Notes under the pieces: generated by a model
Database searches by the model: none
What the model was told of the DNA's origin: nothing
The model's input: the letters and a program-made list of their open reading frames with translations, nothing else
In this document: piece by piece, positions 13,368 through 61,375 of the stretch
Layout: the number at the start of each line of letters is the position of its first letter
Position numbering within the stretch: position 1 is the stretch's first letter
Assembly: GCA_000004985.1 (NCBI GenBank)
Contig: GG738921.1
Length of the DNA: 64,000 nt
Source of the DNA: Naegleria gruberi
Taxonomy: Eukaryota
Strand: one strand, 5' to 3'
Program-made: the position numbers and the translations under genes

Positions 13368-13693
13368 TTTGAAATAATTTGAGATTCGATTAGAATTAAA
13401 CTATTTAAGATAATTATCTTGGTGGATGTTATATGGAGTTTTGCGCATGTGGAATTATATTGGAATCTATTTGGCATTCAAGAAAAGTGTGTAACGGAGT
13501 TAAATTACAGTGACCATACTTATTGAGTATGAGATACAATGTTCCCATAGCTGAGGATTCGTGTATTAATATATCCATTACTGTTCGTTCTTATTCTCTC
13601 ACTTCTTTTATTAATAAACTACTAGAAATGTACATTTCTATTATTGAACCGATGTGAATGAATAAACAAAGAAATATTTCATAGTGAATGTAT

Positions 13694-13765
13694 TCCCGTG
13701 TAGTCCAATGGCTAGGATACCTGGCTTTCACCCAGGAGGTCCGGGTTCAATTCCCGGCATGGGAG
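13694..13765 (+). tRNA. tRNA-Glu (anticodon UUC)
   Basis: Cloverleaf folded by hand: acceptor TCCCGTG/CATGGGA, D arm GTCC..GGAT, anticodon stem CCTGG/CCAGG with loop CTTTCAC, T arm CCGGGTTCAATTCCCGG. Close to eukaryotic tRNA-Glu consensus. Confidence 0.85.
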
Positions 13766-13840
13766 GATAATTTTACATTTTCAAATGCGGAATAGTTTGG
13801 TTATCATCTCCGGATTTATTTCTGAAACACTGCAAAAAAA

Positions 13841-14326: not shown

Positions 14327-15520
14327 NNNNNNNNNNNNNNNNNNNNNNNNNNNNNNNNNNNNNNNNNNNNNNNNNNNNNNNNNNNNNNNNNNNNNNNNNN
14401 NNNNNNNNNNNNNNNNNNNNNNNNNNNNNNNNNNNNNNNNNNNNNNNNNNNNNNNNNNNNNNNNNNNNNNNNNNNNNNNNNNNNNNNNNNNNNNNNNNNN
14501 NNNNNNNNNNNNNNNNNNNNNNNNNNNNNNNNNNNNNNNNNNNNNNNNNNNNNNNNNNNNNNNNNNNNNNNNNNNNNNNNNNNNNNNNNNNNNNNNNNNN
14601 NNNNNNNNNNNNNNNNNNNNNNNNNNNNNNNNNNNNNNNNNNNNNNNNNNNNNNNNNNNNNNNNNNNNNNNNNNNNNNNNNNNNNNNNNNNNNNNNNNNN
14701 NNNNNNNNNNNNNNNNNNNNNNNNNNNNNNNNNNNNNNNNNNNNNNNNNNNNNNNNNNNNNNNNNNNNNNNNNNNNNNNNNNNNNNNNNNNNNNNNNNNN
14801 NNNNNNNNNNNNNNNNNNNNNNNNNNNNNNNNNNNNNNNNNNNNNNNNNNNNNNNNNNNNNNNNNNNNNNNNNNNNNNNNNNNNNNNNNNNNNNNNNNNN
14901 NNNNNNNNNNNNNNNNNNNNNNNNNNNNNNNNNNNNNNNNNNNNNNNNNNNNNNNNNNNNNNNNNNNNNNNNNNNNNNNNNNNNNNNNNNNNNNNNNNNN
15001 NNNNNNNNNNNNNNNNNNNNNNNNNNNNNNNNNNNNNNNNNNNNNNNNNNNNNNNNNNNNNNNNNNNNNNNNNNNNNNNNNNNNNNNNNNNNNNNNNNNN
15101 NNNNNNNNNNNNNNNNNNNNNNNNNNNNNNNNNNNNNNNNNNNNNNNNNNNNNNNNNNNNNNNNNNNNNNNNNNNNNNNNNNNNNNNNNNNNNNNNNNNN
15201 NNNNNNNNNNNNNNNNNNNNNNNNNNNNNNNNNNNNNNNNNNNNNNNNNNNNNNNNNNNNNNNNNNNNNNNNNNNNNNNNNNNNNNNNNNNNNNNNNNNN
15301 NNNNNNNNNNNNNNNNNNNNNNNNNNNNNNNNNNNNNNNNNNNNNNNNNNNNNNNNNNNNNNNNNNNNNNNNNNNNNNNNNNNNNNNNNNNNNNNNNNNN
15401 NNNNNNNNNNNNNNNNNNNNNNNNNNNNNNNNNNNNNNNNNNNNNNNNNNNNNNNNNNNNNNNNNNNNNNNNNNNNNNNNNNNNNNNNNNNNNNNNNNNN
15501 NNNNNNNNNNNNNNNNNNNN
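14327..15520. other. Assembly gap (1194 N)
   Basis: Run of n characters; all track ORFs with long X stretches are artefacts of this gap. Confidence 1.
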
Positions 15521-36511: not shown

Positions 36512-37492
36512 ATGGGTAATGTCATTCCTGTTAACACTCTCTTCTTGGGTATCGATGGAGCTGGTAAAGTAAGTAACATGAAATCTTTACATTTCGTCTA
36601 ATGTGTAAACTAATGTTTAAACTAATGTGTGTAAACTAAACTTTAGACCACCATCATCAACACTGGTATGAACAAATTCAAACAATTAAAACAAGAGCAA
36701 ATTGATGCTATACAACCAACTTTGGGACATGATTCAAAGAGATTTACAGTGGAAGGAGTTGAATTTATTTCATGGGATGTAAGTATTTGAAGAATTGAAC
36801 AAGTTTTCTAATAGTAGAAATTGTCATTGATTGAATGGTGTTGTTGTTTTGTTCATTGACTGCTCCAATAACAATAATAATAACAAATGTCATGTTGACG
36901 TGTAAAAAACTCGAAATCTTTGGATGATTTGAAAAAATATTAAAAAATTCGTGATGATATGAAAAATGGATTCGATTCTTGGCCATGACATGAATTTTTC
37001 TCACTATTTCTCACCACCATTGACAATACCACAACAACACATTGAACAATTCAATCACGACCACTTTGTTGCTTCCTATAGTTCCCTGGCAAGGAACAAC
37101 TTCGTTCCACATGGACTTCCTACTATAAACATGCTCAAGTCATTGTCTTTGTTGTTGACAGCTCTGATAGTGATGAACGTTTAGAAGAAGTTAAGGAAAT
37201 TCTCCACTCCATCATTCAAAATGTCCAATTACGTGAATGTTTGTTGTTGATTTTGGGTAACAAACAAGATTTGAATTCCACTAGAAATTTGGATAAATTG
37301 AAGGATACTCTCGGATTAGGAGGTAATTTAAGTGGATTACGTGATCGTACTTGGAAGATACTTACTTGTACTGCCAAAACTGGAGATGGTTTGGAAGATG
37401 CTTTCAAATGGTTGTCAACTGAAACAATGAAGGCCTATAAAAAGAGAGAAAGCAAGAAGAAGGAAGAAAAGAAGGAAGAAACTAAAAAATAA
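36512..37492 (+). CDS. Arf-like (Arl) small GTPase with Lys/Glu-rich C-terminal tail; exons 36512..36568, 36647..36778, 37082..37492
   Basis: MGNVIPVNTLFLGIDGAGKTT (G1 split by intron 1), WD|FPGKEQLRSTWTSYYKHAQVIVFVVDSSD (G3/switch II), LGNKQDL (G4), CTAKTGDGLEDAFKWL (G5). Introns 36569..36646 (78 nt) and 36779..37081 (303 nt) both GTAAGT..AG. Confidence 0.75.
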
Positions 37493-37880: not shown

Positions 37881-38988
37881 ATGTCTGCTCAATCCATTAG
37901 CTTTTCCAAGTATACAAAATTCGACAATCACTACAGAAAACAATACGTCGAATCGATCAAGACCCAAAATGAAGAGATGAGCAAGAAATTAAATCATCCA
38001 ATGGAATGGTATTGCTCCGAGAAGGTTCATGGTTGTAATTTGAGCTTTATTGTTGATAGAGTAAGGCAATCAGAGTATAAAGTAGAGGTTGCTAATCGTT
38101 CATGTGTTCTTTCACAATCATCAATGAGCTTTTATCCAAAAACAATTGAACAGTTGGAGAAAAAGTTTGAGTGGTGAATTGAATGAACAATTGAAATTGA
38201 AGAGTGTTCAAATTTATGGTGAATTATTTGGTGGATTATTCCCAAATAAGAAACCTTCAGATGCTAAGGCAATTCAAAGTGGAATTCACTATTGTCCACA
38301 TCATGATTTTTATGCTTTTGATGTTCTTCTCGGATTTGAGAATGGAAAACAATCTTGGGCTGTTTTTAACAATGTTGATCCATTGTTGGATGAGTGTGGA
38401 TTCAAAGTGAGAGCTCAACCATTGTTTAAGGGAACTTTGGACGAATGTTTGGAGTTTGATGTTAAATTTAACACTAAATTACCAGAAACTTTCTATCCAG
38501 AAATTGTAAAGGAAAGAAATGCTTCCTGGAAGGATTTGGATAATATTTGTGAAGGTGTTGTCATCAAACCAACCAAGTACAATATCTTTGTGGAAACTGA
38601 AAGAGCTGTAATCAAGAAGAAGAATGAAAAATTCTTGGAAACTGAAGCTAGTGATAAACCACAACAACCAGTGAAAAAGGAAAAGGGTGACTCTGAAGAG
38701 CTAGTTCAGGTATGGAATGAACTCTCACGATACATTACCTCCAATCGTTTGGATAATGTTCTCTCAAAGATTGGAAACCTCACCAAGAGTAACATGTTCC
38801 CAGTTATGAAGGAATTCTCAAATGATGCCCTCGAAGAATTTAAATTAGATTTGGAACGTGGTGCTTTGGAAAATTGTAAACCAGTTTCTTCACTTTCAAG
38901 TGAAGATCAGAAAAAGCTCACTAAAAAGATCAATGATGCTTGTATGGTTTTAATTAAGGAACAATTAAACAAACCATCATCAGAATAA
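37881..38988 (+). CDS. Rnl2-family ATP-dependent RNA ligase homolog (nucleotidyltransferase motif I KVHG); single-base frame break near 38145-38160
   Basis: EKVHGCNLSF matches the T4 Rnl2 motif I (EKIHGTN). ORFs 37881..38177 and 38146..38988 overlap in different frames at the homopolymer gagaaaaag; removing one A yields continuous ...EKSLSGELNEQLK.... Confidence 0.55.
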
Positions 38989-39098
38989 AGTGCAAGTTGA
39001 CTATTTCGAATAAAAGTGGTGTTACTGAAATAATTTACAATTTTTTGTTTTTTGAATACAAATTGCAATTTATTGATTATTTACCATACAATAACCAT

Positions 39099-39386
39099 TC
39101 AATAATTACGGTGTTTACCCTCATAGGTATGATAAACCTCTACTCTGTCTTGTTGTGGTACAGTATCGCTTCTTTTTTGATGGTCTGGAAAGTTTTGTAG
39201 GTGTTGTCTTAAATTGCCATGAATGTTACCAGTGGCAGCACACTTATGTCCTTGTGGGGTTTGACTACTAATGGGGTTATTTTGAGATTTAATTTGACTA
39301 CTTGTTTGGGAGTTATTTTGAGATTTAATTTGGCTACTTGTTTGGGAGTTATTTTGGCGACCAGTTTGGGATTTATGTTGAGTCAT
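39099..39386 (-). CDS. Small hypothetical protein with tandem QTSSQIKSQNNS repeats
   Basis: 95-aa ORF; underlying about 39-nt DNA unit directly repeated twice at 39275..39352. Confidence 0.3.
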   Translation of the reverse strand: MTQHKSQTGRQNNSQTSSQIKSQNNSQTSSQIKSQNNPISSQTPQGHKCAATGNIHGNLRQHLQNFPDHQKRSDTVPQQDRVEVYHTYEGKHRNY

Positions 39387-39624
39387 TTTGTTTCTGGCTT
39401 GTTTTATTTATTTTAACATACCACGTTTAACATCAAAACTTTTATTATAAAGAACTTTTGAGCCAAAAGGGAGACTTCATTTTTGGACAATTTCTTAATT
39501 TATGAAATTACTAGCTCAAGAGAAGCCCAAGACGAGTCAAGGATTTATTTGGTGTTGGTGAGCCTTTAAATTGAACCAATGACAATAAGGATATTGTTAA
39601 GAAATTTTAAAAAATCAGAAAAAA

Positions 39625-60404: not shown

Positions 60405-61375
60405 ATGCCACAACATGTCCATCATCACTCCCTCTCACCTTCAAGACCAGTCGTCGTTATTGATAATGGCTCGGGAATGATTAAGGTAGGATTTTCCTGT
60501 AGTGATTCTCCCAGAGCCATATTTCCAACAATAGTAGGGCATAAAAAAGAGTCATCAGATCAAAAGAAGGAAACAACCAACAATGATCTCAATAGTATCG
60601 GATCATCATTTGTTGGAGAGATGGCAATAGCTCATCGAGAATTATTGGACATAAAAAGTCCCATGGAAAATGGAATAATTTCAAATTTTGATGATATGGA
60701 AAAGATTTGTTATCATCTCTATCCGGAGTTCTTGTCACAGAACCAAGTTAGAATCCAAAGTTGGTGAGAGAAAAAACAACAGAAATATTTTTTGAAAAGT
60801 TTAAGGCCAATCAGTGATGGGACTTTGTTCGAGTGCCAGATCAGATGGTGTTGTTTTGGATGCTGGTTATACGAAATCATATGCTGTTCCAATTCTTGAA
60901 GGAATTGCATTGCCACATGCCATTCAGGTGATGNNNNNNNNNNNNNNNNNNNNNNNNNNNNNNNNNNNNNNNNNNNNNNNNNNTTCACAAAGAGGAGGTT
61001 TGAATTGTCAGATGGAAGCAAAGTGAATTTTGGAGAGGAATTAATGTCATGTCCAGAAGCTCTATTCAACCCACAGTTAATCAAAGAAGGAGAAGGAATT
61101 CACAAGATTCTCGTCAATTCCATTTTCAATTCAAATGCAGAAATCACAAGACAACTCTTTGCCAATATTGTCCTTGTCGGTGTCTCAACAATGTTTGAAG
61201 GTTTTCCCAATCATTGAATTGGCTCCTCTCTCTGTAAAAGTGAAAATCCTTTCATTCCCCGAAAGAAAACTCTTCCTGGTTTGGAGGTTCAATTACGAGC
61301 TCTCTTTCAGAATTCCACAATATGGCCATTCACAAAAAGGAATATGAAGAAGTTGGACCTAGAATTGTAATGTAG
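60405..61375 (+). CDS. Divergent actin-related protein (ARP); interrupted by a 50-N gap and at least two single-base frame breaks
   Basis: [30 protein letters not shown], ..[36 protein letters not shown], then in three different frames: [53 protein letters not shown].., ..[20 protein letters not shown].. and ..[33 protein letters not shown]. These blocks are colinear with actin. Confidence 0.6.
60934..60983. other. Assembly gap (50 N) inside the ARP gene
   Basis: n run. Confidence 1.

Follow-up and report, generated by a model that had tools for sequence, protein, structure and literature searches.

A disrupted Rnl2-family RNA ligase gene in the reference sequence of Naegleria gruberi

Described Rnl2-type ligases

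T4 Rnl2 (gene rnlB; PDB 2HVQ/2HVR/1S68) and the Rnl2 of phage KVP40 have a two-domain architecture in common with the Naegleria gene analyzed here. In T4 Rnl2 and in this gene, a nucleotidyltransferase (NTase) domain carrying motifs I, Ia, III, IIIa, IV and V is combined with a helical C-terminal domain specific to Rnl2. By analogy with T4 Rnl2, the intact Naegleria ligase would be expected to use the same chemistry: Lys48 would attack ATP to form ligase-AMP, the AMP would be moved to the 5′-phosphate at a nick in duplex RNA, and attack by the 3′-OH would seal the nick, with the C-terminal domain helping to bind the nicked duplex.

The hosts of the kinetoplastid ligases REL1 and REL2 belong to Discoba, as does Naegleria. 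We know of no evidence for mitochondrial editing in Naegleria. REL1 and REL2 (PDB 1XDN) have the Rnl2-type NTase domain in common with the Naegleria protein (phmmer E = 6e-8; Foldseek E = 3e-14; TM about 0.5-0.7), but the likeness spans this domain only: the Naegleria protein continues into PF18043, whereas the RELs have their own C-terminal region. Naegleria Rnl2 has served as a comparator or outgroup for the Rnl2 ligases of kinetoplastids and diplonemids (PMC4599027).

In N. gruberi itself, 13 ATP-dependent RNA ligases have been reported, including "five different Rnl2 family members" (Unciuleac and Shuman, RNA 2015; PMC4408790). NgrRnl (PDB 5COT), the Rnl5 ligase of the same organism, belongs with the present gene to the covalent nucleotidyltransferase superfamily and has the same nick-sealing chemistry, but represents a different family, in which a signature N-terminal domain occurs and the C-domain does not (PMC4408790). 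Our literature search found no biochemical characterization of Rnl2 proteins from N. gruberi or other heteroloboseans.

Family and context of the Naegleria locus

We analyzed a window of 64,000 nt of N. gruberi DNA (assembly GCA_000004985.1, contig GG738921.1). Splicing positions 37881-38074 to 38154-38988 yielded exactly the translation of protein P0001 (342 aa; XP_002669886.1 / EFC37142.1, "RNA ligase [Naegleria gruberi]"), so that at the ligase locus the window does not differ from the N. gruberi reference. XP_002669886.1 is on the published list of the five Rnl2 members (PMC4408790), the sole citing paper that a literature search for this accession returned. Therefore, the occurrence of an Rnl2 homolog in a eukaryote, which a preliminary description of this DNA had singled out, is no surprise and was already known for exactly this gene; the assignment to Rnl2 is correct and already published. 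The features of the locus are as follows.

36560-37492, upstream of the ligase: Arf-family GTPase gene (PF00025, E = 7e-11, last exon)
37881-38177, + strand: ORF1, 98 aa, N-terminal part of the NTase domain; premature TGA at 38175-38177, four codons past the deletion junction
38019-38039, + strand: motif I, EKVHGCN; Lys48 (AAG, 38022-38024) aligned with T4 Rnl2 Lys35, the adenylylated lysine
38075-38153, + strand: "intron" of the RefSeq model, 79 nt, GTATAAAG...TTGAACAG; coding sequence conserved in relatives
38082-38102, + strand: motif Ia, VEVANRS; Arg aligned with T4 Rnl2 Arg55; within the RefSeq-model "intron"
38146-38988, + strand: ORF2, 280 aa as listed, in the +1 frame relative to ORF1
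38165-38169, + strand: deletion junction AAG^TTTG; 68 nt absent relative to the contigs L001, L002 and L003
38167-38988, + strand: remainder of the gene in the +1 frame, from LSGELNEQ... to TAA; motifs III, IIIa, IV and V and the C-terminal domain
38212-38235, + strand: motif III, IYGELFGG; Glu aligned with T4 Glu99
38305-38325, + strand: motif IIIa, DFYAFDV; aligned with T4 Phe119 and Asp120
38548-38571, + strand: motif IV, CEGVVIKP; aligned with T4 Glu204 and Lys209
38602-38634, + strand: motif V, RAVIKKKNEKF; aligned with T4 Lys225 and Lys227
38686-38946, + strand: Rnl2-specific C-terminal helical domain, PF18043 (E = 7e-28), including the counterparts of T4 Arg266 and Asp292

Searches against Pfam identified PF18043 (T4_Rnl2_C, E = 7e-28) and PF09414 (RNA_ligase, E = 1e-12) in ORF2, and a weak match of ORF1 to the first 33 positions of the PF09414 profile (E = 6.5e-4), the remainder of which is covered by ORF2. 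Judged on sequence, the likeness of the split gene to Rnl2 is far above chance. A repaired protein of 391 aa, obtained by supplementing the window with 68 nt from contig L001, matched PF09414 with E = 3e-18 (67 bits; cut-off 27) and PF18043 with E = 3e-27. Against TIGR02307 ("RNA ligase, Rnl2 family") it scored 149.4 bits (E = 1.7e-43), under the equivalog cut-off of 197.15. TIGR02307 is by far the best-scoring family, and we take the score below its cut-off to be that of a divergent eukaryotic branch, not equivalog-level evidence. Among PDB sequences, the repaired protein matched only T4 Rnl2 (2hvq, E = 3e-16; 1s68) and REL1 of T. brucei (1xdn, E = 6e-8).

When the repaired protein was aligned with Rnl2 from the T4 genome, all of the following T4 residues proved to be conserved: E34, K35, H37, N40, R55, E99, F119, D120, E204, K209, K225, K227, R266 and D292. 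The KxHGxN context of motif I is present, with K48, H50 and N53 corresponding to T4 K35, H37 and N40. According to mutagenesis by the Shuman laboratory, the T4 residues aligned here reportedly matter for activity. The counterparts of the essential residues are complete in the window, divided between two reading frames.

An AF2 model of P0003, an intact relative that stands in for the broken protein (pLDDT 92.5; pTM 0.87), was compared with known structures using Foldseek. Full-length T4 Rnl2 (2HVQ/2HVR) ranked first (E ~1e-18, ~362 aligned columns), making T4 Rnl2 the top match of the Naegleria ligase in both sequence and fold. The T4 NTase domain and TbREL1 (E ~3e-14) ranked below it, and NgrRnl (Rnl5), archaeal Rnl3, fungal Trl1, DNA ligases and capping enzyme ranked lower still, at E of at least 8e-6. 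These comparisons bear out the preliminary description, which had read the product as an Rnl2-family protein and not a DNA ligase or capping enzyme: the PF09414 profile that it had named, PF18043 and the best PDB match all agree, and the motif I that it had quoted is present at 38019-38039.

Other assignments were rejected. DNA ligases and the mRNA capping enzyme were matched by fold at E of at least 3.6e-4 and 6e-3, respectively, versus 1e-18 for T4 Rnl2, and the repaired protein gave no Pfam match to DNA_ligase_A or mRNA_cap_enzyme at E ≤ 0.01. A REL-type ligase is at odds with a C-terminus that corresponds to T4_Rnl2_C and with a 1XDN match confined to the NTase domain. For the Rnl5 family, TIGR02306 scored 19.7 bits versus a cut-off of 151 and the fold match to NgrRnl had E ~1e-5. 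By descent, this is an Rnl2-family gene with a T4-type C-domain, and not a REL-type ligase, Rnl5, DNA ligase or capping enzyme.

We further searched a protein collection with the naively merged protein. The top match was P0001, followed by ENA metagenome proteins and then by homologs of Naegleria lovaniensis, Willaertia magna and Acrasis kona; the next tier consisted of ~110 bacterial or metagenomic proteins named "Rnl2 family RNA ligase" (25-36% identity). The named heterolobosean homologs have the same family and domain pair as the N. gruberi ligase but are only 33-47% identical to it. In a rough neighbor-joining tree of 115 sequences, all heterolobosean Rnl2 proteins fell within one clade of 9 tips. 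This otherwise heterolobosean clade also contains P0010, a protein of 341 aa from a Logan assembly, whose sequence may come from an unsampled heterolobosean.

The rnlB homologs of T4-like phages are 27-31% identical to the Naegleria ligase over 87-98% of its length. The Naegleria protein exceeds T4 Rnl2 by ~55 residues and carries insertions after motif III and around the helix that follows motif Ia; its gene is disrupted in the present assembly. Unlike phage Rnl2, the gene is nuclear: it lies between ordinary nuclear genes, the intron-containing Arf-family GTPase gene upstream and a gene for an LRR protein downstream, in agreement with the eukaryotic host assumed in the preliminary description. 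At least two introns of the Arf-family gene, at ~36570 and ~36780, begin with GTAAGT. A tblastn search within the window detected no second copy of the ligase gene.

The window contains two runs of N, at 14327-15520 (1194 bases) and 60934-60983 (50 bases), which represent scaffold gaps, so the source is a draft scaffold. These Ns also account for two artefacts at 14-16 kb, an apparent dip in GC-content and long ORFs on both strands. Just upstream of a gene running into the assembly gap, we also observed a tRNA-Glu (anticodon TTC; 13693-13766, + strand).

The frame break

The two halves of the gene, 37881-38177 and 38146-38988, lie on the same strand and are out of frame, as the preliminary description had stated, the second being in the +1 frame. 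To locate the break, we compared the window with the contigs encoding the closest relatives. L001 is an ENA metagenome contig of 1749 nt, with reads in ERR1078381, that is syntenic with the window on both flanks and 98.9% identical to it over the gene (12 substitutions over 1102 aligned positions). L002 and L003 carry more distant Naegleria-like copies; they come from one ENA sample, other than that of L001, and are not syntenic with the window. Two independent DNA alignments revealed that exactly 68 nt present in L001, L002 and L003 are missing from the window at 38165|38166.

The sequence at the junction in the window is …GAGAAAAAG^TTTGAGTGG…, and the intact form in L001 is AAG-TTTG-GACCAATG…GAATTGGA-TTTG-AGT, so that the lost block is bounded by a direct repeat of 4 nt, TTTG. 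The lost 68 nt encode GPMSIQLFESIERVLPKWAELD plus 2 nt, so that 22 codons are gone and the reading frame is shifted; past the junction, frame 0 reads F-E-W-stop and ends after 98 aa. The lost segment aligns with a stretch found in every member of the family, T4 Rnl2 included. In the P0003 model, a long helix of 32 residues (57-88) lies between motifs Ia and III, and 22 of these residues correspond to the lost segment. A search for the lost 68 nt elsewhere in the window returned only chance matches of at most 17 nt. A spliceosomal intron lost or gained at this site was rejected: none of the five deletion registers within the TTTG microhomology is GT…AG, and the segment is conserved coding sequence.

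The preliminary description had placed the break at an A5 homopolymer at about 38150. The frame overlap does have two A5 runs within 30 nt (38138-38142 and 38160-38164), a point in favor of a one-base error or mutation separating two otherwise complete halves. Both runs, however, have the same length in L001 in direct alignments, with a synonymous A/G at 38141 as the sole difference, and therefore the homopolymer explanation is wrong. Merging the frames at either run would also leave a protein without the 22 conserved residues found in every homolog. We consider that this explanation has practically no chance of being correct.

The downstream half cannot be taken for a separate gene. Independent translation of ORF2 was rejected: its listed TTG start is an artefact of the bacterial code, and the first ATG in its frame, at 38794, leaves just 64 codons and therefore no meaningful second product. 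An uninterrupted frame for the complete catalytic domain is not present in the window. The window copy is expected to yield a fragment of 98 residues with motifs I and Ia only, and no ligase.

Downstream of the ligase, the window and L001 also differ in the distance from the stop codon to the LRR gene, which is 599 nt in the window (39008-39606) and 11 nt in the syntenic L001. The segment 39008-39606 is unique within the window and represents an insertion/deletion polymorphism. It holds a 36-nt tandem repeat (39272-39356, 2.4 copies) and, on the minus strand, an ORF of 95 aa (39099-39386) with a repetitive SQ-rich sequence and no Pfam match.

Selection, gene model and competing explanations

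We estimated dN/dS from Nei-Gojobori counts. Of the changes between the window and L001, 8 are synonymous and 3 nonsynonymous (dS 0.039; omega 0.09; P = 2e-4 against neutrality, binomial test), and the comparison with L002 gave an omega of 0.13 at dS 0.60. These values show that purifying selection acted on the ligase gene until very recently. The 68-nt deletion is the sole lesion of the window copy, and it distinguishes this copy from the N. gruberi paralogs and from the other heterolobosean homologs.

Lesions of other kinds were found in the related contigs. L001 is intact at the 68-nt site but carries AAG -> TAG at codon 333, within the C-terminal domain (L001:1397-1399, corresponding to 38809-38811 of the window), and the 58 codons downstream of this TAG are still conserved. 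The TAG is either an independent disabling change or an error of the metagenome assembly. The copy in L003 (L003:648-1879) is clearly a decayed pseudogene of the same ligase: a 10-nt deletion destroys motif V, motif IV has a Val-to-Asp change, a further 1 nt is deleted close to the 3′ end, and there are small indels that keep the frame. L002, from the same ENA sample, carries an intact copy. In view of the independent lesions in L001 and L003, this ligase paralog appears dispensable, which is plausible given the four other Rnl2 genes of N. gruberi, those for XP_002679917.1, XP_002679286.1, XP_002672691.1 and XP_002676530.1. The lesions in these environmental contigs also hint that the paralog is being lost repeatedly. 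A scan of JGI metagenomes for more N. gruberi-like alleles returned only distant relatives with at most 33% identity, which tempers the case for a real deletion.

The deposited model XP_002669886.1 regains the frame by means of its 79-nt "intron" (38075-38153), which takes out motif Ia. It is very unlikely that this model is real, that is, that a cryptic GT...AG pair became spliced as a new intron after the deletion (intronization), giving a 342-aa protein without motif Ia and the next helix. The GT and AG boundaries are there, the spliced coding sequence is open and equals XP_002669886.1, and an intron of 79 nt would be plausible in length. In L001, L002 and L003, however, the same stretch is continuous conserved coding sequence, and the motif Ia Arg that it encodes, the counterpart of T4 Arg55, is nearly invariant. 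Its 5′ site, GTATAAAG, is unlike the GTAAGT of two introns in the adjoining Arf gene, and the catalytic core of the model's product would be ~49 residues short, with two strands and a helix among the missing parts. Inventing introns to bridge frameshifts is routine for gene predictors; most likely, the 79-nt "intron" is such an annotation device, and the deposited protein is probably not a real product. We likewise find it scarcely credible that a real deletion is rescued by splicing, which would give an Rnl2 derivative of 342 aa with the adenylylation lysine and the C-domain retained but motif Ia lost. Were such a derivative to exist, it would act either as a ligase whose core is altered or as an RNA-binding protein that has no catalytic activity.

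A choice remains between a real mutation and an artefact. The preliminary description had offered a sequence error or a recent pseudogene, and this dichotomy stands, although the homopolymer that it named as the cause does not, and correcting a single base would not restore the protein. We consider it likely that the 68-nt deletion is real, possibly heterozygous, and that the window copy is a very recently inactivated allele, a young pseudogene of a redundant RNA-repair family. Deletion between the TTTG microhomologies would have removed 22 codons of the helix between motifs Ia and III and shifted the frame; translation would end after 98 residues, the downstream half would yield nothing, and the inactivated allele may be present on one haplotype only. 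Alternatively, the gene of the organism could be intact, encoding ~391 aa, and the 68 nt could have been dropped from the draft consensus, for example by a deletion at the TTTG repeat in the sequenced clone. We regard such an assembly or cloning artefact as unlikely, but it is the more serious of the alternatives. The deletion is seen in one draft scaffold, which has gaps; it is a single lesion in a gene whose catalytic residues are otherwise all intact and whose omega is 0.09 against the 98.9%-identical allele in L001; and a search of the protein collection for the exact 98-aa product of ORF1 returned no other record. Purifying selection and a single lesion would nonetheless fit a young null allele or an artefact alike. 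A real mutation is favored because clean losses flanked by microhomology typically result from slippage or end joining, are a normal type of mutation in vivo, and are not typical of base-calling or consensus errors. A real mutation is also favored because L001 and L003 carry independent lesions, which suggests that the paralog tolerates disabling mutations; these lesions come from metagenome assemblies and could themselves be errors.

The locus is most likely an ordinary case of recent disruption within an expanded gene family and less likely a flaw of the assembly; its RefSeq model is misleading, and it has no bearing on any major open question. Expressing XP_002669886.1 as deposited would probably give an inactive protein; the intact form of the ligase can be rebuilt from the sequences of L001 and L002. 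Repeated loss of this paralog would fit redundancy in the unusually large RNA ligase set of Naegleria. Our results add a small correction to the inventory of this set: of the five Rnl2-family ligases attributed to N. gruberi, one corresponds to a disrupted gene in the reference sequence.
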